DNA of 64,000 nt from Faecousia sp. (GCA_045650665.1 JAZRRL010000019.1:8454-72453); one strand, 5' to 3'. Counted from the first letter of the stretch, positions 27,764-64,000 are shown. Translations and numbers: made by a program. Notes: a model not told the origin generated them from the letters alone.

Positions 27764-29863
27764 ATGGAATTTTTAGAGGGCATCATTGCCTATCCCTTAG
27801 GGTTTGTAATGAATATCTGCCATCGGTTGCTTCGCGATTACGGCATTGCCATCATTGCATTTACACTGGTTACCAAGTTCATTCTGCTCCCCCTTTCTGT
27901 TTGGGTGCAGAAAAACTCCATCAAAATGGTGCAGATGCAGCCGGCCATCAACCGGATCAAGGCCAAATTCTTTGGCGACGCGGACTCCATTGCAGATGAA
28001 GAAGCAAAGCTTTATAAACAGTATAAGTACAATCCTCTGGCCAGTATTTTCCCCCTGCTGGTGCAGATTTTACTGCTGATGGGTGTCGTAGCGGTTATTT
28101 ACAACCCCTTCGACTATCTGTTCCACATGGATGCAGCGGTGATCTCCGGCATCAATCAGGTGGCCAGCGAACTGTCCGGCATTCCGGTGGCGGATTCTTC
28201 CATTCAGCTGACTGCCATTGAGTACATCAAGAATCCTGAATATGCCGACGCTTTTGCAGCCCTTCCCGGCATCGAGACTTATTGGGAGCAGATCGTCAAT
28301 TTTGATCTGCGGTTCTTGGGTATCAATCTTTCCCACAATCCCAGCATCGTATGGGGCATTACCATCGTAGTCCCCTTGGTGGCCGGTCTTTCCGCCGCAT
28401 GGCTGTGCGTTGCCCAGAACAAGGAAAATGTCCTGCAGGCCGAGCAAAGCAAAGCCAACCAGTGGAGCATGTCCATTCTGTCCGTTGGTCTTTCTCTTTA
28501 CCTTGGCTTCTTCGTTCCTGCCGGCATTGCACTGTACTGGATTGCCAGTAATCTGTTTGCCATTGCGCAGCTGTATTTGCTGAATATGGCAATCCCGCCT
28601 AAGAAATATGTGGACTATGCAGAGCTGGAAGCAAGCCGGAAAGAGCTGGCACAGCTGAATGCAATGGTAGAAAAGAAAAAGCCCTTCCAGAAGGATGTAA
28701 ACGCCAAACGGGAACGGGCTGACTACAAGCGTTTCTTCTCCATTCGCAACAAGCACCTGGTATTTTACTCCGAGCGCAGCGGTTTCTACCGTTATTATAA
28801 AGAAATTATTGAGTTTATTTTGTCTAAGACCACCGTGGCTATCCATTACATCACCAATGATCCTGATGACATTGTTTTTGAGCTCGCTAAGGAACAGCCC
28901 CGGCTGAAACCCTACTACATCGGTGTAAAGAAGTGCATCACTTTGATGATGCGTATGGAGGCAGATGTGGTGGTCATGACCACCCCGGATCTGGATAATT
29001 TCTACCTGAAGCGTTCCTTAATGCAGAAGGATATCAACTACATCTATGTTCCCCATGACCCCGCCAGTATGCACATGGGCTTCCGGGAGCATTGCATGGA
29101 CCACTTTGATACTATCTTCTGCACCGGTCCGCATCTGGCTCAGGAAATCCGCGCCACGGAAAAGGTCTACGGCACCAAAGAAAAGGAACTGGTGGAGTTC
29201 GGTTATCCTTTGATTGAAAATCTCATCGCTTCCTGCGAACAGCTGGAGCCCAATACATCTTCCAGAAAAACCGTTCTCATTGCTCCCTCCTGGCAGGAAG
29301 ATAACCTGCTGGACAGCTGTGTGGATGACCTGATCAACAGCATTTACGGCGACGATTACAAGATCATCGTTCGTCCCCATCCGGAGTATGTGAAGCGCTA
29401 CAGCGGTAAATTGCAGATGCTGGTGGATCGTTATCAGGATAAGGTTGGCGAAGGTCTGGAATTTGAATTGGATTTCAGCACCAGCAAATCCGTCTACAGC
29501 TCCGATATTCTGATCACCGACTGGTCCGGTGTTGGCATTGAATTTGGCTTTGCCACACTGAAGCCCGTAATTTTCATCAATACCAAAATCAAACTGCAGA
29601 ATGAAAATTACAAAAATATCGGTCTGGAGCCTCAGGAGATTGCCCTGCGAAATGTTCTGGGCGTAGCCTTGGAAAAGGGCGAAATCCAGGAAAAATTTGC
29701 CGATACTGTCAAATCCCTCATGGGTAACGAAGACTTTAAAGAAAAAATCAAAGCCAAGCGGGAGGAATATTTCTATAATCTTGGTTCCGGCGGTGTGCAT
29801 GGTGCCAAGTATATTATCCGCTATTTGCTTGATAAGAAAAAAGAAAAGGAGAATACCAAATGA
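27764..29863 (+). CDS. YidC/Oxa1 insertase fused to CDP-glycerol glycerophosphotransferase (TagF/TagB-like) domain
   Basis: N-half YGIAIIAFTLVTK..LLPL, QPAINRIK, YNPLAS, GIALYWIASN; C-half IAPSW, RPHP, SDILITDWS. Confidence 0.82.
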   Translation: MEFLEGIIAYPLGFVMNICHRLLRDYGIAIIAFTLVTKFILLPLSVWVQKNSIKMVQMQPAINRIKAKFFGDADSIADEEAKLYKQYKYNPLASIFPLLVQILLLMGVVAVIYNPFDYLFHMDAAVISGINQVASELSGIPVADSSIQLTAIEYIKNPEYADAFAALPGIETYWEQIVNFDLRFLGINLSHNPSIVWGITIVVPLVAGLSAAWLCVAQNKENVLQAEQSKANQWSMSILSVGLSLYLGFFVPAGIALYWIASNLFAIAQLYLLNMAIPPKKYVDYAELEASRKELAQLNAMVEKKKPFQKDVNAKRERADYKRFFSIRNKHLVFYSERSGFYRYYKEIIEFILSKTTVAIHYITNDPDDIVFELAKEQPRLKPYYIGVKKCITLMMRMEADVVVMTTPDLDNFYLKRSLMQKDINYIYVPHDPASMHMGFREHCMDHFDTIFCTGPHLAQEIRATEKVYGTKEKELVEFGYPLIENLIASCEQLEPNTSSRKTVLIAPSWQEDNLLDSCVDDLINSIYGDDYKIIVRPHPEYVKRYSGKLQMLVDRYQDKVGEGLEFELDFSTSKSVYSSDILITDWSGVGIEFGFATLKPVIFINTKIKLQNENYKNIGLEPQEIALRNVLGVALEKGEIQEKFADTVKSLMGNEDFKEKIKAKREEYFYNLGSGGVHGAKYIIRYLLDKKKEKENTK

Positions 29864-53850: not shown

Positions 53851-55044
53851 TTATTTCCATTGAGAAATAGGTCTTGTTTGTTCCTGCAGGAGCAAAAGAT
53901 CTGTAATAATAGTATTGGACAGCAGGAAGCCTTCCGCTGTCAAATGCCATCTTCCGTCACCGCCACGCAGGGCATAGCCTCGCTGACGGCACTGAATCAG
54001 CGCCTTTTCAATGGGCGCAAACGGAAGCAGGAATTGCTTTTCGTATTCCTCACCGCTGATACCATAGGTGGTACGCAGGTGCATCATTAAATATTCGCCG
54101 GCTCGTTCTCTTTGGGGAATTGCCTGAATTTCCCGGAGAACCTGACCACCGGAACGAATGCCGGTGATGTAGCCATGCAGATCCCGAACTACAGAAAACC
54201 GCTTTCCGGCAAAATCGGAGCTGGCATCCGGGCCAAAGCCCAGATATTCACCACCGGTCCAGTATTTCATATTGTGCCGGGATTCCCGATTTCGCTTGCA
54301 GAAATTGGAGATTTCGTACTGCTTGTAGCCTTTGCTTCGCAGAATTTCCACCGTTGCCAGATACATATCCGCCTGCATATCGTCATCCGCCATGCGCAGC
54401 TGACTTTGCTGCTGGCACATAGGCGTTCCCGGCTCCAGTTTCAAACCATAGCAACTGATATGTTCCGGCTGCAGCGACACAATATCATGGAGCGTTTGCT
54501 GCCAGGATTCCAGATCCTGCTCCGGCAAGCCGTAGATCAGATCCAGCGACAGATTTTTGAAACCGGCTCTGCGGATCATTTTCACCGCATCAACCGCCAT
54601 TTCATAGTCGTGAGGACGGCCGATGGCTTCCAAAATGGCATTGTCACTGCACTGCACGCCCAAACTGACCCGGTTGAAGCCTTCCCCCCGGAGTCTGCGT
54701 AAAAACTTGGGGGTAATGGAATCCGGATTTGCCTCAAAGGTAATCTCGGCATCCACCGCCACATCAAAAGACCGACGAATGGTAGCAAGAATGGCTGCCA
54801 TACCTTCTGCCCCGAAAAAGCTGGGGGTGCCGCCGCCAAAATAGACAGTATCTACCCGATAATTGGGTGCCAGCGGGCCGGTCTCCCGGATATGGTCACA
54901 GACAGCGTCCAGATAACCGTCACTGAGCTGACGATCCAGCTCCGTCACAGAGTAGAAATCGCAGTAATGGCACTTGCTTTTGCAGAAAGGGACGTGCACG
55001 TAAATTCCCAAAGGTTTTTTCAGTTTTGTGGAGAATAGTGCCAT
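53851..55044 (-). CDS. hemW: Radical SAM heme chaperone HemW (HemN-like)
   Basis: YVHVPFCKSKCHYCDF, YFGGGTPS, YEISNF, HNMKYW; downstream of lepA. Confidence 0.92.
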   Translation of the reverse strand: MALFSTKLKKPLGIYVHVPFCKSKCHYCDFYSVTELDRQLSDGYLDAVCDHIRETGPLAPNYRVDTVYFGGGTPSFFGAEGMAAILATIRRSFDVAVDAEITFEANPDSITPKFLRRLRGEGFNRVSLGVQCSDNAILEAIGRPHDYEMAVDAVKMIRRAGFKNLSLDLIYGLPEQDLESWQQTLHDIVSLQPEHISCYGLKLEPGTPMCQQQSQLRMADDDMQADMYLATVEILRSKGYKQYEISNFCKRNRESRHNMKYWTGGEYLGFGPDASSDFAGKRFSVVRDLHGYITGIRSGGQVLREIQAIPQRERAGEYLMMHLRTTYGISGEEYEKQFLLPFAPIEKALIQCRQRGYALRGGDGRWHLTAEGFLLSNTIITDLLLLQEQTRPISQWK

Positions 55045-55068
55045 GGGTTGCCTCCGAATAGGGAAATT

Positions 55069-56877
55069 TTAATCCTCGTCCAGTTTGAGGACAGCCATAA
55101 AGGCTTCACTGGGTACGGAAACCGTGCCAAAGGTACGCATCCGTTTTTTACCCTCTTTCTGCTTTTCCAGCAGTTTCTTTTTACGGGTGATGTCACCACC
55201 GTAGCACTTTGCCAGAACGTCCTTACGCAGTGCCTTGATGGTCTCACGGGCAATGATCTTGCCACCGATAGCCGCCTGCACAGGAATTTCAAACTGTGCG
55301 CGGGGAATGTTGTCCTTCAGCTTTTCACAGATTTTTCTTGCTCTGGGGTAGGCATTGTCTGCAAAGAGAATAAAGCTCAGTGCGTCCACAATATCACCGT
55401 TAAGCAGAATATCCAGCTTTACCAATCGGCTGGGACGGAAACCAATGAGCTCATAGTCCAAAGATCCGTAGCCACGGGTACGGGACTTAAGGGCATCAAA
55501 AAAGTCGTAAATAATTTCGTTCAGGGGCATTTCGTAGTGCAGCTCCACCCGGTTGGCATCCAGATAGACCATATCTTTAAATTCGCCACGGCGGGAGGTT
55601 GCCAGATCCATGATGTTGCCCACATATTCCTGAGGTGCCATCAGATTGACCTTGACATAGGGTTCTTCTGCCAGCTGGATTTCCATGGGATCCGGGTAAT
55701 CCAGAGGATTGTCCACCATCAGCACCTCACCGTTGTTTTTGGTAACCCGGTAAACAACGTTGGGTGCGGTAGTGATCAGGTCCAGATTGTACTCCCGTTC
55801 CAAACGCTCCTGAATGATTTCCATATGCAGCAGACCCAAAAATCCGCAGCGGAAACCAAAGCCCAGCGCAATGGAGCTTTCCAGTTCATAAACAAAGGAT
55901 GCATCGTTCAGCTTCAGCTTTTCCAAAGCTTCCCGCAGATCCTGGTATTTTGCGCCATCGGCAGGATACACACCGGAATACACCATGGGCTGCACGGGGC
56001 GATAGCCAGGCAGAGGTTCCGTTGCGCCATTTTCAATGGTGGTGATGGTGTCACCCACTTGGGTATCGGACACATTTTTAATGGAAGCCGTGATATATCC
56101 AACCTCACCTGCGCCCAACGCATCCTTGGGTGTCAGCCCCAGAGGATTCATTGTGCCCACCTCCACAACCTTGTAGGTTGCGCCGGTGGCCATCATTTTA
56201 ATATCCTGACCGGCACGAATGGTGCCTTCTTTGATACGGACATAGACGATAACGCCACGATAAGAATCGTAAACACTGTCGAAGATCAATGCCTGCAAAG
56301 GTGCATTGCGATCACCCTTGGGAGCAGGCACATCCCGGACAATCATTTCCAGAACGGAGCGGATGTTGATGCCGTTTTTGGCGGAAATTTCCGGGGCATC
56401 CTCTGCGGGAATGCAGATAATATCCTCGATCTCCGCCTTGACCTCTTCCGGCCGGGCAGAGGGCAGGTCGATCTTGTTAATAACAGGCAGAACCTCCAGA
56501 CCGGCATCGGTAGCCAGGAAAGTATTTGCCAAGGTCTGTGCTTCCACACCCTGGGAAGCGTCCACTACCAGCACAGCGCCCTCGCAGGCTGCCAAGGAAC
56601 GGGAAACCTCGTAGTTAAAGTCCACGTGGCCGGGTGTATCGATCAAGTTCAGGGCATAGGTATCCCCGTCATCCGCCTTGTACGTCAGCTGAACAGCTGT
56701 TGCCTTAATCGTGATGCCGCGCTCACGCTCCAAATCCATGGAGTCAAGCATCTGGCTTTCCATCTGCCGTTGATCAATGGCATTACACTCCTCCAACAGA
56801 CGGTCTGCCAGAGTGGATTTGCCGTGATCGATATGGGCGATAATGGAAAAATTACGAATTTTCGAAAGTTCTGTCAT
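55069..56877 (-). CDS. lepA: Elongation factor 4 (LepA)
   Basis: [55 protein letters not shown]. Confidence 0.98.
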
Positions 56878-57122
56878 ATGTGTATACCTCAATAAATGGC
56901 AGTATTTTTTCCATTATACAGAATTTCAGGCAAAAAGTAAACTGTATGTTTTCTCTGAAAAGTGGGAAAACTTTGCATTGTAACGACAAAAAACGGCAAA
57001 AGCCAAAAAAATCGAATATTTTTTCAGAAAAACCCTTGTCAAAACCGAAAAAACGGGATATAGTCTATGGGCTGAGAAAAGAATGACATACGTTTGACAG
57101 AAAGAGAAAGAGGGGGATTTTA

Positions 57123-58277
57123 ATGGGCTCACAAAAGAAAACTCCGGCCAAGTCCACAGAAGAACTGCAGGCCGAACTGCAAGCACTGATTGTTCAAGGC
57201 CGTAAGGATGGCATGATCCGTGCTTCCGATCTGTCTGCTCTGCTGGAGCAAATGGATCTGACTGCTGAAAAAATTGAGGAGATCTATGACCGCTTTGAAG
57301 GCATGAACATTCAAATCATCGGCTCCGATCTGGATTTGGATCTGAGCGACGATCTGGATATCGGTCTTTTGGACGATGACATGGATCTGGATATGTCCGC
57401 TCTGGACGATGAAGAACTCATCGACCCGGTGGATCTTGCCGCTGAGTACAATTTGGACGATCCGGTACGTATGTACCTGAAGGAGATCGGTCAGGTAAGA
57501 CTGCTGTCCGCAGAAGAAGAAGTGGAGCTGGCGCAGCGTGTTGCTGACGGCGATCAGGCTGCTAAAAACAAGCTGACCGAAGCAAACCTCCGTTTGGTGG
57601 TTTCCATTGCAAAGAAATACTCCGGTCGTGGTCTGCACATTCTGGACCTGATTCAGGAGGGTAACACCGGTTTGATCCGTGCTGTTGATAAGTTTGACTG
57701 GACAAAGGGAAATAAATTCTCTACATATGCCACCTGGTGGATCCGGCAGGCCATCACAAGAGCCATCGCCGATCAGGCTCGTACCATCCGTGTACCGGTG
57801 CATATGGTTGAGGTCATTAACAAAGCAACCCGCTGCAACCGTAAGCTGGTGCAGGAACTGGGACGTGAGCCCACTGTGGAAGAGATCGCAGCTGAGCTGA
57901 ATCTGCCTGTGGAAAAGATCATCGAAGCCAACCGTACCGCTGCAGATACCTTGAGTCTGGACACTCCCGTGGGTGATGAAGAAGATACCTCCATCGGTTC
58001 TTTCGTGGAGGACGAGCGCACCCCGGGTCCCGCAGATGCTACCTCCAACGCCCTGCTTTCTGAGGCACTGAAGGAAATTCTGGACACCCTGACCGAGCGT
58101 GAAGCCGATGTTCTGCGTATGCGCTTTGGTATGTACGACGGCCGCACCCACACCTTGGAGGAAGTGGGTCAGATCTTCGGCGTTACCCGTGAAAGAATCC
58201 GTCAGATCGAGAACAAGGCGATCCGTAAGCTCCGCCATCCCAGCAGAGCAAAGAAGATCAAGGATTTCTATTGTTAA
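57123..58277 (+). CDS. rpoD: RpoD/SigA-like sigma70 factor
   Basis: Region 1.1, [54 protein letters not shown]. Confidence 0.88.
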
Positions 58278-58283
58278 TATGCC

Positions 58284-58309
58284 ACCCGGCTCTGCGGAGC
58301 CGGGTTTTC
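58284..58309 (+). terminator. Terminator
   Basis: acccggctc-tgcg-gagccgggt followed by T run. Confidence 0.78.
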
Positions 58310-58426
58310 TTTTCCACATTCTGCACTTGATTTTCTTGCCTTTTGGGAGTATAATTTATGCTAGGATTGTATTAGAATGCAGAAATGGGCGCAAATTCGT
58401 CCACCTGCTTTTGAGGAGATATTCTT

Positions 58427-59431
58427 ATGAGAAGAAAACGCAGAAATTCCAATATGATTACCACCGTTGCCATTGTTATCTTTGCGGTGGTCGTATTTGC
58501 TATGGTGCCCGTGGTGGGTAACTGGATTTTGGATAAAATCGTCCCCTCCGAACCTGCTGTCAACAGCAGTGTTGCTTCCTCCGATTCTTCCACTGCCCCC
58601 ATCAGCACACCCCCTGCTTCCACCGGCGCACCGGATACAGAAGCGCCGATACTCGTAGGCGTAAAGAATCTGGAGGTTTATCTGGGTGGTACGATTTCTT
58701 ACAAGAACGGCGTTGCTGTTACCGACAATGCCGATCCCAAACCCAAGCTGGAAATCGACAATTCCAAGGTGGATCTGAACACCCCCGGCACCTATGAAGT
58801 TACCTACTGCGCAACCGATGCTTCCGGCAATAAGGCTGCCCCCATCACCGTCACCGTTACGGTGAAGGTAAAACCCGATAATTTCGTAGATCCTGAGGTA
58901 GTTTATGCCAAGGCAGATGCTATTCTTTCCCAGTTTATCCGTGACGACATGACCAACCAGGAAAAGGTAGAAGCTGTTTACGTCTGGACACGGCGCAGCG
59001 TCCACCTGACCTATGGCTCTGCCCCCAAGGGCTTTGACCACGAAAGCGCTGACTGGCTGCAGACCGCCTATCAATTCCTGAACAAGGAAGTTTCCAAGGG
59101 TGACTGTTTCTATTTCTTCGCTGTACAGAAATTGCTTCTGCAGCGGCTGAATATCCCCACCATTGACTGTGAAAAGATCTATGATGGCGACTCTCACCAC
59201 TACTGGCTGCTGGTCAGCATCGACGGTGGCAAGAGCTACTACCATTTCGACAATGTATGGTCCAACGCCCTGTGCTTGGTAACCGACGCAGAATTGGACG
59301 CCTTCTCTGCTGTGTTGGACAGCAATCCCTTCAATCGGGACAAGACCAAATACCCTGCTACACCCACTGAAAAGCTGCCCGCAAGCGAGCTTCCCTGGAA
59401 TGATTCCACTATCCTGGGCGCCAAGTACTGA
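58427..59431 (+). CDS. Membrane-anchored Ig-like (DUF5011-like) plus transglutaminase-like protein
   Basis: TM helix; DTEAPIL..TDNAD..VDLNTPGTYEVTY; GDC, HYW, HFD putative Cys-His-Asp triad. Confidence 0.78.
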   Translation: MRRKRRNSNMITTVAIVIFAVVVFAMVPVVGNWILDKIVPSEPAVNSSVASSDSSTAPISTPPASTGAPDTEAPILVGVKNLEVYLGGTISYKNGVAVTDNADPKPKLEIDNSKVDLNTPGTYEVTYCATDASGNKAAPITVTVTVKVKPDNFVDPEVVYAKADAILSQFIRDDMTNQEKVEAVYVWTRRSVHLTYGSAPKGFDHESADWLQTAYQFLNKEVSKGDCFYFFAVQKLLLQRLNIPTIDCEKIYDGDSHHYWLLVSIDGGKSYYHFDNVWSNALCLVTDAELDAFSAVLDSNPFNRDKTKYPATPTEKLPASELPWNDSTILGAKY

Positions 59432-59439
59432 GGTGTGCC

Positions 59440-60171
59440 ATGAGGGATAACAGAAAAATCTTGGGCGTGATTGGCGGCCTGGGCCCCATCGCAACTGCCC
59501 ATTTCATGGAACTGGTCATCAATATGACCGATGTGGATACCGATCAGGCACACCTGCCCATGATCGTGTACAACATGCCCTTTATTCCCGATCGCACCGC
59601 CTATATTCTGGACAATACCAAAGAAAATCCCCTGCCGAAAATGTTGGAGATTGGAAAGACCCTGCAGGAACAAGGTGTGGATTGCATTGCGATTCCGTGT
59701 GTCACTGCTCATTATTTTATGGATGCGCTGGAAGCACAGATCAATGTTCCGCTGATCAACGGTGTCCGGGAAACGGTTGCACATTTGAAGGAAAACGGTG
59801 TACAGAAGGTGGGTATTATGGCTACCGATGGCACCATTCGCTCTGGAATTTTCCACAAAGAACTGGAAAAGCAGGGCCTGCAGCCCATTGCCCCGCTGGC
59901 AGCTGCGCAAGCAGATGTCATGCATCTGATTTTTAACAATGTAAAGGCCGGCAAAGCTGCCGACATGGATCGTTTTGCTGCAGCCGCCGAGGATCTGCGC
60001 AAGCAGGGCGCTCAGGCCATTATTTTAGGCTGCACCGAGCTGTCCCTGATCAAGCGGGATCATAAAATTGGTGCCGGATTTGTGGATGCCATGGAAGTGC
60101 TGGCACGACAAAGTGTTCTTGCCTGCAACAAGCCTTTGAAAAAGGAATACGACTGTTTGATTACTGGCTAA
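59440..60171 (+). CDS. Aspartate/glutamate racemase family protein
   Basis: GVIGGLGP.AT, IPCVTAH, LGCTELS two-cysteine motifs. Confidence 0.92.
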   Translation: MRDNRKILGVIGGLGPIATAHFMELVINMTDVDTDQAHLPMIVYNMPFIPDRTAYILDNTKENPLPKMLEIGKTLQEQGVDCIAIPCVTAHYFMDALEAQINVPLINGVRETVAHLKENGVQKVGIMATDGTIRSGIFHKELEKQGLQPIAPLAAAQADVMHLIFNNVKAGKAADMDRFAAAAEDLRKQGAQAIILGCTELSLIKRDHKIGAGFVDAMEVLARQSVLACNKPLKKEYDCLITG

Positions 60172-60192
60172 AACCGAGAGGAGAAACCTGCT

Positions 60193-61704
60193 ATGCAGAC
60201 AAATATTTTGGAATATTTGGAAGGAACAGTGAAGCGCTGTCCGGATAAAGTTGCCTTTGCCAATGAGGAAATGGGTCTGACCTTCCGTGAGGTCTATGCG
60301 CAAGCCCGTTCCATCGGCACAAAACTGCATACAGAAGGTTTCTACCGTCAGCCCATTGTGGTGTTCATGCGCAAACATCCTACCACCTTGGCAGCATTTT
60401 TCGGTGCTATCTATGCCGGCTGTTACTATGTACCGCTGGATGATGAGATGCCCCGGCATCGTATTGAGCTGATCTTCCAGACGCTGGGTCCCGGCGCACT
60501 GATCTGCGATGAAACCACTGAAGCCATTGCCGGTGAGTTGAACTATCAGGGCAAGATCTTCCGCTATGAAGATTTGGCAAAGAGCGCTGCAGACGATGCG
60601 GTTCTTGCCGACATTCGGGAGAAGCAGCTGGATATCGACCCCATTTATATCGTGTTCACCTCCGGCTCTACCGGTGTGCCCAAGGGTGTGGTGGCTTGCC
60701 ATCGCAGTGTCATCGACTATGTGGAGCATCTGTGTGATGTGCTGAAATTTGACGAAAATTCTGTTTTCGGCAATCAGACACCGCTGTATTTTGACGCTTA
60801 CCTGAAAGAGGTTATCCCCACGCTGAAATATGGCGCAAAGACGGTGCTGATTCCCAAGCAGCTGTTCATGTTCCCCATCAAGCTGGTGGAATTTTTGAAC
60901 GAGCATAATATCAATACCCTCTGCTGGGTTGTGTCTGCGCTGACCATGATTTCCTCTTTCCGTACATTTGAAACGGTAAAGCCGGAGCATCTGCGCACCA
61001 TTGCCTTTGCCAGCGAAGTATTCCCCATCAAGCAATTTAAACTGTGGCGTGCGGCGCTGCCCAACGCCCGGTTCATCAACCTCTATGGACCTACAGAAAC
61101 CACCGGCATCTGCTGTTATTATGAGGTAGATCGGGAATTTTCCGAGGAGGAAACCCTGCCCGTGGGTCGTCCTTTCAAGAATACCCAGATCATTCTGTTG
61201 GATGAAAACAACAAAGTTCCTCCCGTGGGTCAACAGGGCGAGATCTGTGTCCGTGGCACCCGTCTGACCTTGGGTTACTACTGCAATCCTGAGAAAACAA
61301 GCGAAGCCTTTGTCCAGAACCCTCTGAACGATCTGTATCCGGAGCTGATTTATCGTACCGGTGATCTGGGTCGCTGGAATGAACGTGGCGAACTGGAATT
61401 TGCAGGCCGGAAGGATTATCAGATCAAGCACATGGGTCACCGCATCGAGCTGGGTGAAATTGAGGTCATCGTGAATATGCATCCTCAGGTTCGCTCTGCC
61501 TGCTGTATTTTTGACAACGAAAAGAAGAAGATCGTTCTGTTCTACACCGGCGACATCACTCTGGCAGAACTGACATCTTATATCAAAGGCAAGCTTCCCC
61601 GCTACATGATCCCCAACGTGACCAAACAGCTGGAGGAACTGCCCTACACCCCTAACGGAAAGATTGACCGCAACGGACTTAAAAATCTGTATGCCGGTAA
61701 ATAA
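60193..61704 (+). CDS. Stand-alone amino acid adenylation enzyme (DltA-like)
   Basis: FTSGSTGVPKG, NLYGPTET, YRTGD, GRKDYQIK.MGHRIELGEIE, NGKIDR. Confidence 0.93.
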   Translation: MQTNILEYLEGTVKRCPDKVAFANEEMGLTFREVYAQARSIGTKLHTEGFYRQPIVVFMRKHPTTLAAFFGAIYAGCYYVPLDDEMPRHRIELIFQTLGPGALICDETTEAIAGELNYQGKIFRYEDLAKSAADDAVLADIREKQLDIDPIYIVFTSGSTGVPKGVVACHRSVIDYVEHLCDVLKFDENSVFGNQTPLYFDAYLKEVIPTLKYGAKTVLIPKQLFMFPIKLVEFLNEHNINTLCWVVSALTMISSFRTFETVKPEHLRTIAFASEVFPIKQFKLWRAALPNARFINLYGPTETTGICCYYEVDREFSEEETLPVGRPFKNTQIILLDENNKVPPVGQQGEICVRGTRLTLGYYCNPEKTSEAFVQNPLNDLYPELIYRTGDLGRWNERGELEFAGRKDYQIKHMGHRIELGEIEVIVNMHPQVRSACCIFDNEKKKIVLFYTGDITLAELTSYIKGKLPRYMIPNVTKQLEELPYTPNGKIDRNGLKNLYAGK

Positions 61705-61716
61705 AGGAGAAAAAAC

Positions 61717-61944
61717 ATGGAAGCATTACTGAACATTCTGAACGAACTGCACCCTGAGGTGGATTTTGAAACCGCCACCGGTCTTATTGATGATAAGGTG
61801 CTGGATTCTTTTGATATTGTCACCATCGTGGCTGAGATCGACGCTGAGTACGATGTGCAGATTCCCGCTGTGGAGCTGACTCCCGAAAACTTTAACTCCG
61901 CGCAGGCATTGTATGCTCTGGTGGAAAGATTGATGGAAGAATAA
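61717..61944 (+). CDS. Acyl/aminoacyl carrier protein (DltC-like)
   Basis: 75 aa, acidic; LDSF phosphopantetheine site; LTPENFNS. Confidence 0.92.
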   Translation: MEALLNILNELHPEVDFETATGLIDDKVLDSFDIVTIVAEIDAEYDVQIPAVELTPENFNSAQALYALVERLMEE

Positions 61945-61945
61945 T

Positions 61946-63511
61946 ATGCAATTTACGTCCGTAAGTTTTCTGCTGTTTGCGGCGGTTGTCCTGCTGGGCA
62001 ACTATCTGCTGCCCAAAAAGGTGCGGTGGGTCTGGTTGCTGTGTGGCAGTATGTTCTTCTATGCTCTGGCAGGTGTGCAGTATTTTGCATTTATTTTGCT
62101 AACTGCTGCTTCTACCTACCTTGCGGGCATTGTTATGGGCAAAAATCTGGCCGCGCAGGATGCATTTCTTGCCGAAAACAAGCAGATCCTCACCCGGGAG
62201 GAGAAAAAGGAATATAAGGCAAAAGTCAAGGGCAAGAACCGCATCATTATGCTCATTTGCCTGGTGATCAACTTTGCCGTGCTGGCTCTGTGCAAATTTT
62301 TACTGGCAGAGCCCTTTGCATCCATGGCAAAAAACACCGGCTTGTCCTTTTTGACCTTGGGTCTGCCCTTGGGTATTTCTTTCTACATGTTCCAGAGCAT
62401 GGGCTATGTGATCGACATTTACCGTGGCACTGACAAGGCAGAAAAGAATCCCCTGAAGCTTTTGCTGTTTGTGTCCTTCTTCCCCCAGCTGATTCAGGGT
62501 CCTATCAGCCGTCACGCTGATCTGGCGCCCCAGCTGACTGAAGGCAAAGCCTTCAACGGTAAGGAATTTTCCTTTGGCCTGCAGCGCATGCTGTGGGGTT
62601 ATTTTAAGAAGATGGTCATTGCTGACCGGATTGCTGCAGCGGTGATTGCCCTGCGTGGTCCGGAATTTACCGGTGTTGGTTTTTTCCTGCTGACAGTTTT
62701 TTATGCAGTGCGGATCTATGCCGACTTTACCGGCGGTATCGACATGACCATCGGTCTTTCCCAATCTCTGGGTATCAAGCTGGAGGAGAACTTTGTAAGA
62801 CCTTTCTTCTCCAAGAATATTGCTGAATATTGGCGCCGCTGGCACATTAGCCTGAGCGTGTGGATGAAAAGCTACATCTTCTATCCCCTCTCCGTCAGTC
62901 AGCCCATTCTGAGTCTGAGCAAAAAGGCTCGCACCAAACTGGGCAACTTTGGCAAGCGTTTGCCCGTGTATGTGGCATCCATTGCAACTTGGTGTGTCAC
63001 CGGTATCTGGCACGGCATCACCCCCAATTTTATTTTGTGGGGCATGATGAACTGCTTTGTGATCGTGGTGTCTGAGGAACTGAATCCCCTCTACGAAAAA
63101 TTCCATAACCGCTTTGGCTGGAAAGAGAAAAAGTTGTACGGTGGCTTTGAAATGCTGCGGATGTTTGTTCTGATGAACCTGATCCGCATTGTGGACTTGT
63201 TCCCCGATGTGGGGGATTATTTCCGCCGCATGGGCTCTTTGGTGACCACCTTCAATTTCCATATTCTTTGGGACGGCACTATGATGAAGCTGGGTCTGAC
63301 CAGCCTGGATTACGGCATTTTGCTAGGCGGCATTGTTCTGATGTTTGCTGTGAGCCTATTCCAGGAAAAGAAGGGCAGCGTCCGGGAAGCACTGTGGGAC
63401 AAGCCTCTGCTTCGCTACATCCTTGTATTTACGCTTTTGGTAATCGTACTGCTTATGGGCAGCTACGGCATTGGCTATAATGCAAGCAGCTTTATCTACA
63501 ACCAATTCTAG
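61946..63511 (+). CDS. MBOAT family O-acyltransferase (DltB/AlgI-like)
   Basis: LPLGISFYMFQ, FFPQLIQGPI, GYFKK.VIAD, YADFTG, ENF..PF, WRRWHISL, GIWHG. Confidence 0.94.
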   Translation: MQFTSVSFLLFAAVVLLGNYLLPKKVRWVWLLCGSMFFYALAGVQYFAFILLTAASTYLAGIVMGKNLAAQDAFLAENKQILTREEKKEYKAKVKGKNRIIMLICLVINFAVLALCKFLLAEPFASMAKNTGLSFLTLGLPLGISFYMFQSMGYVIDIYRGTDKAEKNPLKLLLFVSFFPQLIQGPISRHADLAPQLTEGKAFNGKEFSFGLQRMLWGYFKKMVIADRIAAAVIALRGPEFTGVGFFLLTVFYAVRIYADFTGGIDMTIGLSQSLGIKLEENFVRPFFSKNIAEYWRRWHISLSVWMKSYIFYPLSVSQPILSLSKKARTKLGNFGKRLPVYVASIATWCVTGIWHGITPNFILWGMMNCFVIVVSEELNPLYEKFHNRFGWKEKKLYGGFEMLRMFVLMNLIRIVDLFPDVGDYFRRMGSLVTTFNFHILWDGTMMKLGLTSLDYGILLGGIVLMFAVSLFQEKKGSVREALWDKPLLRYILVFTLLVIVLLMGSYGIGYNASSFIYNQF

Positions 63512-63519
63512 GAGAGAAT

Positions 63520-64000
63520 ATGAAGAAGAAAATCGCTTTATTGTCCTCTGTTCTGGTGATCGCAGGCATTCTTTTGTACTGTCTGCAGGCGCTTTTGATG
63601 CCCAAGTATATGGTGGGCAAGCACAAAGAAGGCGCACTCATTGCCGAGTATTACAAAAATGCCGGTAATAACGATGTCATCTTCATCGGTGACTGTGAGG
63701 TTTACGAAAACTTTTCCCCCATTACCATGTGGGAAAATTACGGCATCACCTCTTACATCCGGGGCAGCGCACAGCAGCTGATCTGGCAGAGCTACTACCT
63801 GATGGAAGAAACCTTCCGGTATGAAACGCCCAAGGTGATGGTGTTCAACGTACTTTCCATGAAGTACGATACTCCCGAAAGTCCCAAGGAGAAAAATCAG
63901 CGGGAAGCCTACAACCGCATGACATTGGACGGCATGCGTTGGTCCAAGTCCAAATGGAATTCCATTTTGGCCTCCATGTCCAAGGAGGAACGGGAAAATA
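63520..64000 (+). CDS. SGNH/DltD-AlgJ-like protein, 3' end outside window
   Basis: Own translation: N-terminal TM then DVIFIGDCEVYENFSP..MWENYGITSY.RGS..Q; open to window end. Confidence 0.75.
   Translation, partial: MKKKIALLSSVLVIAGILLYCLQALLMPKYMVGKHKEGALIAEYYKNAGNNDVIFIGDCEVYENFSPITMWENYGITSYIRGSAQQLIWQSYYLMEETFRYETPKVMVFNVLSMKYDTPESPKEKNQREAYNRMTLDGMRWSKSKWNSILASMSKEEREN

Follow-up and report, generated by a model that had tools for sequence, protein, structure and literature searches.

At its downstream end, a window of 64,000 nucleotides from Faecousia sp. (the whole stretch of DNA analysed; GCA_045650665.1 JAZRRL010000019.1:8454-72453, or G000:C19:8454-72453 in our numbering) carries six co-directional, tightly packed genes on the plus strand (58427-64000). 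We call them g1 to g6; the last runs past the window end and is followed on the contig by a seventh, g7. On balance, and at somewhat better than an even chance, we favour the reading that this cassette encodes a relay in which an MBOAT and an SGNH-fold protein, fed by a carrier protein, transfer an acidic D-amino acid, D-aspartate being the likeliest, to an extracytoplasmic component of the envelope. The cassette combines an aspartate-type racemase gene (g2) co-inherited with an adenylation-enzyme gene (g3), a substrate pocket different from that of DltA, a candidate carrier protein (g4), an MBOAT with a fused acyl-shuttle motif (g5) and an SGNH-fold protein with a cysteine at the nucleophile position (g6). 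Within this reading, D-aspartate in particular is a tentative choice, falling a little short of an even chance, and D-glutamate has only a small share.

Gene content and order of the cassette

The open reading frame (ORF) listing of 54000-64000 bore out the initial annotation, which had described six packed genes separated by 1-21 bp: the gaps from g1 to g6 are 8, 21, 12, 1 and 8 bp, and the family assignments hold. Positions above 64000 are window-equivalent and were read from the contig (locus L001, G000:C19:65000-79961; window coordinate = L001 coordinate + 56546). Since g6 is completed on the contig, where g7 and a terminator follow, and since a terminator and a promoter-like site lie upstream of g1, the unit is a seven-gene operon. 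Dozens of species have the seven genes in this same order, which is therefore not due to chance. The base composition of the locus showed nothing unusual.

An aspartate-type racemase is co-inherited with the cassette

The second gene, g2 (59440-60171, plus strand, 243 amino acids (aa)), encodes a two-cysteine racemase of the aspartate-racemase family, independent of pyridoxal phosphate (PLP). It scored 217.8 bits on TIGR00035 (cut-off 93.1) and 146.5 bits on PF01177 (Asp_Glu_race, cut-off 31), with just 37 bits on the glutamate-racemase model. The closest solved relative is the aspartate racemase of P. horikoshii (PDB: 1JFL; E 7e-50, 173 bits), and both catalytic cysteines are retained, with Cys87 and Cys198 of g2 aligned to those of 1JFL. 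Furthermore, Arg52 and Lys169 of g2 align with Arg48 and Lys164 of the P. horikoshii enzyme (PhAspR), which we take to be its beta-carboxylate-binding residues. Assignment of g2 as an Asp-type racemase is supported by these matches, and the Asp/Glu racemase that had been claimed for the operon is borne out by the 1JFL and TIGR00035 results.

Within the genus Faecousia, the racemase was found in 9 of 25 genomes, exactly those with a cassette of the DAK type (defined by the pocket code of g3, below) or a remnant of one, and in none of the 16 others (Fisher p = 5e-7). It lies directly upstream of g3 wherever the contig allows; two of the 16 racemase-free congeners carry a sister-clade system. Among DAK-clade loci of other species, 27 of 39 have a racemase, usually between g1 and g3, and in the tree of adenylation enzymes the racemase-linked form occupies a large crown clade, within which the racemase was lost about four times, next to a basal group that has no racemase. 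An unlinked AspR homologue (34-44% identity) was present in 11 of 14 genomes with a racemase-less cassette. Pairwise divergences of racemase and adenylation enzyme were correlated (Spearman 0.65, Mantel p <= 0.001), as strongly as those among the core genes (0.54-0.66).

For the class as a whole, 400 Clostridia species from 217 genera were drawn evenly and the cassette was scored by its Cys-type g6. It was detected in 45 species of 22 genera. An AspR homologue was present in 28 of these 45 genomes (62%) versus 59 of the 354 others (17%; odds ratio 8.2, p = 4e-10), and in about 20 of the 28 it is on the same contig as g6, within about 6 kb of it. The initial annotation had made conservation of the racemase with the operon decisive for its reading: this held in 9 of 9 cassette genomes of the genus, in the greater part of the other loci and in the co-divergence, and gave way in about a third of the cassettes. 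The racemase is integral to most cassettes, not to all.

Three cases deserve separate mention. In congener G021, a decayed cassette (L028, G021:C132, 3841-6939) has g1 reduced to its immunoglobulin-like (Ig-like) part, an intact racemase, a 418-aa adenylation gene that lacks the SGSTG core motif, and then g7, with g4 to g6 absent. Congener G012 has two racemase-adenylation pairs (G012:C136:2880-5131 and G012:C73:18849-21097), in each of which the adenylation gene is 85% identical to g3; this genome is 6% contaminated, and the two pairs may stem from two strains. Outside the Clostridia, a complete seven-gene cassette with racemase was found in a metagenome-assembled genome labelled Candidatus Gastranaerophilales (L044), through horizontal transfer or else through an error in binning.

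The adenylation pocket points to an acidic substrate

The product of g3 (60193-61704, plus strand, 503 aa) is a stand-alone enzyme with an AMP-binding domain that scored 334.2 bits on the amino-acid adenylation model TIGR01733 (cut-off 317.4) and stayed far below the cut-off of the DltA equivalog TIGR01734 (272.5 bits, cut-off 559.85). Measured against solved structures, it lies no further from the adenylation domains of nonribosomal peptide synthetases (NRPS) than from DltA. By its family matches, g3 is an amino-acid adenylation enzyme other than DltA.

To map the pocket we used a fragment of GrsA-PheA, exact to residues 234-335 of 1AMU, to which g3 was aligned. PheA positions 235, 236, 239, 278 and 299 correspond to D201, A202, K205, C244 and A271 of g3, and positions 301, 322, 330, 331 and 517 to A273, L297, G305, I306 and K490, giving the pocket code DAKCAALGIK; the assignment of positions 330/331 can shift by one residue (G305/I306 or I306/C307), depending on a BLASTP-type one-residue insertion. 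Asp201 and Lys490 occupy the Asp235 and Lys517 sites for the alpha-amino and carboxyl groups, and Ser274 stands where Gly302 is usual. Ala273 sits at the position of a DltA cysteine, the residue by which DltA selects D-Ala at this point of the pocket. The code DAKC-A-[AG]-L-G-[IM]-K is common to 46 of 88 relatives, and the lysine at position 239 (Lys239, PheA numbering) is invariant in those 46. In surfactin synthesis the Glu module has the code DAKDLGVV and the Asp module DLTKVGHI, with its lysine at position 278 (PMC10548584). The code of g3 opens with D-A-K as does that of the Glu module, and together with Lys239 this argues for a substrate with a side-chain carboxylate or sulfonate. As far as it can be read, the pocket leaves Asp versus Glu unsettled and carries no information on chirality.

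Between g3 and the MBOAT gene, 12 bp after the former and 1 bp before the latter, lies g4 (61717-61944, plus strand), whose 75-aa product contains the phosphopantetheine-site motif LDS(31)FD. Its family matches are weak (PP-binding, 19.1 bits versus 20.8; DltC models, 31 versus 68 and 19 versus 52; also the AmcB model), and its position is conserved among relatives. In size and position g4 would fit a carrier protein, not a DltC equivalog.

A shuttle motif fused to the MBOAT and a cysteine-type SGNH protein

The MBOAT acyltransferase g5 (61946-63511, plus strand, 521 aa) matched PF03062 with 64.5 bits and has the conserved His300 in RRWHIS, while its score on the DltB equivalog TIGR04091 was 145.4 bits against a cut-off of 375. 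At its C-terminus it has an extra transmembrane helix and the motif FIY(518)NQF (residues 481-521, nt 63386-63508), and these last 41 aa cover the whole Pfam DltX profile PF12459 (E 1.7e-4, 21.5 bits). Every MBOAT in the 80 related loci, whatever its clade, finishes in F/x-x-Y-x-x-F. There is no separate DltX microprotein, as the gaps of 1-21 bp hold no small ORF. FxYxxF is an acyl shuttle motif in which the tyrosine bears the acyl group, D-Ala in the case of DltX and acetate in that of PatA; DltB is without it, and acetyl-CoA-dependent MBOATs of the PatA type, whose systems have no carrier protein, bear it fused on extra C-terminal helices (PMC12148441). With g3 and g4 upstream and FIYNQF on g5, the cassette thus joins a Dlt-type donor, made of adenylation enzyme and candidate carrier, to a PatA-type fused shuttle.

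The next gene, g6 (63520 to window-equivalent 64590, plus strand, 356 aa), crosses the window end and encodes an N-terminally anchored protein for which the family-profile search gave a weak GDSL match only. Its AlphaFold model, built with 34 homologues, reached a predicted local distance difference test score (pLDDT) of 93.9, and Foldseek matched it to GDSL acylhydrolases, to DltD (6pfx; E. faecium, E. faecalis) and to PatB (E 2e-4 to 1e-3). According to the model, g6 has the SGNH fold. The nucleophile position is taken by Cys59 (TGT, 63694-63696) in block I GDCE, accompanied by His301 and Asp297. The fold is therefore that of DltD, with Cys59 in place of the serine of its Ser-His-Asp triad. 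Of the 34 homologues in the DAK clade, 33 have a cysteine at this position, whereas all other clades have serine. Two features of PatAB-type systems are present, an MBOAT with the histidine and a C-terminal FxYxxF, and a separate extracytoplasmic SGNH partner; an acyl-CoA donor without carrier, the third, is replaced by an adenylation enzyme and carrier encoded directly upstream of g5. In G069, G304 and G405, members of one genus that have the cassette but no AspR homologue, the g6 frames are unusually long (508-537 aa).

Two additional surface proteins belong to the cassette

The cassette begins with g1 (58427-59431, plus strand, 334 aa), a surface protein anchored in the membrane by an N-terminal transmembrane helix. 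Its Ser/Thr/Pro linker is accompanied by an Ig-like domain (residues 80 to 146, approximately) and by a candidate transglutaminase-like core. The Pfam matches InlK_D3 and Bact_surface_Ig-like were both above cut-off. Cys227, His258 and Asp275 occur without exception in 33 homologues, and the g1 profile matched transglutaminase-like cysteine proteases in the PDB, namely 9crn, 3isr and the LapG-type 4u65 (E 8e-5 to 2e-3). Every DAK-clade locus that has its upstream flank contains g1; two or three tandem g1 paralogues were seen in L057 (4054-7993), L035, L042, L062 and L067.

The lipoprotein gene g7 lies outside the window (window-equivalent 64600-65133), 9 bp after g6, and encodes 177 aa with the lipobox Cys20 and one further invariant cysteine, Cys83, in SCAFxGxDK. 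A sequence search against solved structures gave no match for g7, and its model (pLDDT 88) had weak fold matches only, to YfeY, DUF4309 and BLIP-like lipoproteins (E about 4e-3, TM score about 0.4). The DAK code, the Cys-type g6, the Cys-His-Asp g1 and the lipoprotein g7 co-vary and travel together among relatives, and g1 and g7 are obligatory parts of the cassette.

A proposed route for the amino acid

From these sequences we infer a route in which the amino acid and its chirality, each transfer step and the acceptor are all proposals. In the cytoplasm, g2 would convert L-Asp to D-Asp, which g3 would activate with ATP and load as a thioester onto the phosphopantetheine arm at Ser31 of g4; the side-chain carboxylate could bind the invariant Lys239 in the pocket of g3. 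The MBOAT would then carry the aminoacyl group across the membrane onto its own Tyr518 (FIYNQF), and the shuttle would hand it to Cys59 of g6, where a thioester would replace the usual seryl ester. From there the group would move to the final acceptor, with g1 and g7 probably serving as transferase, editing hydrolase or partner.

Two claims of the initial annotation do not survive this account. It had assumed the same relay as in Dlt, from which the fused FxYxxF shuttle, the cysteine nucleophile of the SGNH protein and the obligatory g1 and g7 set the cassette apart. It had also expected an acidic D-amino acid to add negative charge. When D-Asp or D-Glu is esterified through its alpha-carboxyl, the amine stays free, and the group would thus be zwitterionic, with a net charge of 0. 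In contrast to D-Ala, such a substituent would not compensate the phosphate charge of a polymer, yet it would bring no net negative charge either, unless the acceptor is an amine.

A bolder extension of the route, which we consider speculative and rather unlikely, is an extracytoplasmic thiol relay: the amino acid would pass from the carrier thioester to the tyrosine ester of the MBOAT, to a cysteine thioester on the SGNH protein and possibly to the cysteine of g1 or g7, ending in a stable amide, not a labile ester. Alpha-linked D-Asp (or D-Glu) would in this way be placed on an amine of some universal part of the envelope, for instance the stem peptide of peptidoglycan, an amino sugar or a surface protein. 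If true, this chemistry would be new among MBOAT-SGNH systems, and D-amino acids would be incorporated outside the cell by a new route.

Sister clades carry other pockets and other partner enzymes

Related relays outside the DAK clade have the pocket codes DVK[ITV][LM]SLCNK, DNLF.CLDAK, SM.YLALDIK and IARC.SQASK (loci L077, L087, L091, L076, L081, L066 and L073). Their SGNH proteins have serine and their MBOATs FxYxxF, and they are partnered by a PLP-dependent decarboxylase of the ornithine/diaminopimelate type, a GNAT or a formyltransferase, not by a racemase. Given these other codes and partners, the relay is a platform with exchangeable cargo-supplying enzymes, in keeping with a role of the racemase as cargo supplier of the present cassette. 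Some sister-clade systems stand in sugar-modification clusters without an MBOAT.

Weighing of the proposal against alternatives

Several observations count against delivery of D-aspartate by the relay. The lysine at position 239 follows the layout of Glu domains, so the pocket should accommodate Glu no worse than Asp, and the same lysine occurs in sister clades without any racemase (code DVK...). A preference of g3 for the D-isomer is something we infer, and the sequence itself does not indicate it. The racemase also passes the model of the cysteate racemase CuyB (NF052483, 212.6 bits versus a cut-off of 190), an enzyme of the Asp-racemase family whose substrate is the sulfonate counterpart of Asp (PMC11193023). 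Two domain matches end just below their cut-offs, that of g5 to DltX (Pfam cut-off 25) and that of g1 to Transglut_core (PF01841, 21.3 bits versus 23). Finally, a linked racemase is missing from 12 of the 39 DAK-clade loci, and in 17 of the 45 cassette genomes the search for AspR homologues at E <= 1e-20 gave none. As the pocket code is identical in racemase-less cassettes, another source must at times provide the amino acid. D-amino-acid transaminase was considered as a general source of D-Asp in the racemase-less genomes and rejected, the gene being present in 4 of 46, in all cases below cut-off. In the genus of G069, G304 and G405, three of four genomes have a D-amino-acid-transaminase-like gene (238-250 bits, cut-off 277).

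Part of this evidence would be accounted for if the same relay carried D-glutamate, or D-Asp and D-Glu interchangeably, with the AspR-like enzyme being auxiliary or of broader specificity. D-Glu is always on hand from MurI, and many cassettes could for this reason do without a dedicated racemase, most of the genomes without AspR homologue also being without D-amino-acid transaminase. The pocket is compatible with this, as its code opens like that of the surfactin Glu module, the Asp module has its lysine at 278, and the small residues at positions 299, 301 and 330 leave space for a longer side chain. Against D-Glu stands g2, with 173 bits to the P. horikoshii aspartate racemase and 37 on the glutamate-racemase model, and a racemase that is strictly cassette-bound in the genus is hard to explain if MurI is the supplier. 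We regard D-glutamate as an unlikely cargo.

The racemase could also be a passenger, or serve the D-Asp of peptidoglycan cross-bridges or D-Asp catabolism, while the relay moves an L-amino acid or another carboxylic acid. Racemase-less cassettes keep the pocket code, the known role of bacterial D-Asp is in peptidoglycan (PMC13631041), and the decarboxylases, GNATs and formyltransferases of the sister clades show flexible cargo. Yet none of the 16 cassette-free congeners has the racemase, a decayed cassette retains it beside a broken adenylation gene, it co-diverges with the adenylation enzyme, and the two genes are adjacent in many families. This makes a passenger role improbable.

Lower still, and as quite improbable, we rate a product other than a decorated wall polymer, be it a small molecule or a membrane lipid bearing the amino acid. 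No polymer-synthesis genes are conserved beside the cassette in 39 loci, and the proximity of g3 to NRPS adenylation domains would suit a small-molecule pathway. But condensation, thioesterase and reductase domains are absent, g1, g6 and g7 are all surface-exposed, and an MBOAT with FxYxxF paired with an SGNH protein is the hallmark of systems that acylate envelope polymers outside the cytoplasm (PMC12148441).

An ordinary divergent dlt operon that D-alanylates teichoic acids is very improbable: the order of adenylation enzyme, carrier, MBOAT and SGNH genes, the DltX-type motif, DltD among the fold matches of g6 and a genome with no other Dlt-like system all recall Dlt, but the DltA, DltB and DltC equivalog models all scored far below cut-off, the pocket has Ala273 at the DltA cysteine position and Lys239, the racemase beside g3 does not belong to the alanine racemases, cysteine takes the nucleophile position of the SGNH protein, and g1 and g7 are extra obligatory genes.

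Boundaries and genomic context

Upstream of the cassette, rpoD ends at 58277 and is followed on its 3' side by a terminator-like hairpin (58284-58305). Between this terminator and g1 lies a promoter-like site, TTGATT-17-TATAAT (58327-58355, plus strand), which agrees with the consensus at 10 of 12 positions. Downstream, a bidirectional terminator with a 16-bp stem flanked by an A-run and a T-run (window-equivalent 65140-65175; L001 8594-8629) sits between g7 and convergent Gfo/Idh/MocA-type genes and looks shared.

Neighbouring genes were searched for families that could name the acceptor, and there were none: no outside family recurred in more than 4 of the 39 loci, and those few were antisense artefacts. 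With no outside family recurring beside it, the cassette behaves as an autonomous mobile unit that gives no hint of its acceptor. Elsewhere in the window, a 699-aa ORF (27764-29863, plus strand) fuses a YidC domain (PF02096, 111 bits) to a TagF-type domain (PF04464, 47 bits). The PF04464 match is to the CDP-glycerol glycerophosphotransferase domain and is the only one in the whole genome; the product could make a polyol-phosphate polymer and hence supply an acceptor.

No further DltB-like gene was found in the Faecousia genome. Canonical DltA-like genes (at least 400 bits on TIGR01734) were present in 14 of the 400 Clostridia genomes, which makes the cassette about three times commoner, and in 0 of the 45 cassette genomes, an overlap that is not significantly low (p = 0.38). 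Mutual exclusion between the cassette and canonical Dlt was therefore rejected despite the zero overlap.

Significance and comparison with known systems

D-Alanylation by Dlt is a central factor in the surface charge of Gram-positive bacteria, in how they withstand cationic peptides and in host signalling. Should the cassette install an acidic D-amino acid, this would be a new envelope decoration in major commensals of gut and rumen, with consequences for surface charge, cation binding, susceptibility to phages and antimicrobial peptides, and immune recognition. It would also give D-aspartate a new physiological role, since a 2026 review of microbial D-Asp knows roles in peptidoglycan and catabolism only (PMC13631041). 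The cassette would furthermore be the first MBOAT-SGNH system with a carrier-protein donor, a fused shuttle and a cysteine nucleophile. The other pocket codes and partner enzymes of the sister clades show the Dlt-type relay to be a diversifying platform. A full-text literature search returned no published description of the cassette, in line with the initial annotation, which knew of no such characterised pathway.

The likeness to Dlt, which D-alanylates lipoteichoic and wall teichoic acids in Bacillota, lies in a stand-alone adenylation enzyme that would load a small candidate carrier, an MBOAT that would pass the aminoacyl group across the membrane to the tyrosine of FxYxxF, an N-terminally anchored SGNH-fold protein outside and, as proposed here, a D-amino acid made by a racemase as cargo. 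The two differ in that the racemase of the cassette is an in-operon, two-thiol enzyme of the aspartate type while Dlt uses the PLP enzyme Alr, and in that the shuttle of the cassette is fused to the MBOAT while that of Dlt is on the microprotein DltX. The pocket DAKCAALGIK with Lys239, the cysteine of the SGNH protein, where Dlt has serine, and the two extra surface proteins also separate them. With the MBOAT-SGNH O-acetyltransferases PatA/PatB and AlgI/AlgJ/AlgX the cassette shares FxYxxF on an extra C-terminal transmembrane segment of the MBOAT and a separate SGNH protein, whereas PatA/PatB-type systems use acetyl-CoA and no carrier (PMC12148441). Adenylation enzyme and carrier take the place of that donor in the cassette, whose cargo should thus be an aminoacyl group, unlike in the PatA/PatB type, and whose SGNH protein has a cysteine. 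It departs from the defining features of both the Dlt and the PatAB/AlgIJ types and would yet plainly work like both.

RacD or Racfm with AslA offers a parallel for the supply of the amino acid, as there too a PLP-independent racemase of the aspartate family is dedicated to D-Asp for an envelope process, here the cross-bridges of peptidoglycan. The D-aspartate ligase AslA, however, is a cytoplasmic ATP-grasp enzyme acting on UDP-MurNAc-pentapeptide, whereas the cassette has an adenylation enzyme and, as we propose, transfers its cargo outside the membrane. McyF, in turn, feeds D-acidic amino acids to the adenylation domains of microcystin synthesis. Retargeting of a DltA/DltC-like pair from D-Ala to another amino acid for envelope modification is known from AlmEFG, which attaches glycine to lipid A in Vibrio cholerae. 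In that system AlmG is a lipid A acyltransferase of the cytoplasmic face, and the MBOAT, the SGNH protein and the racemase that make up the cassette have no counterpart.

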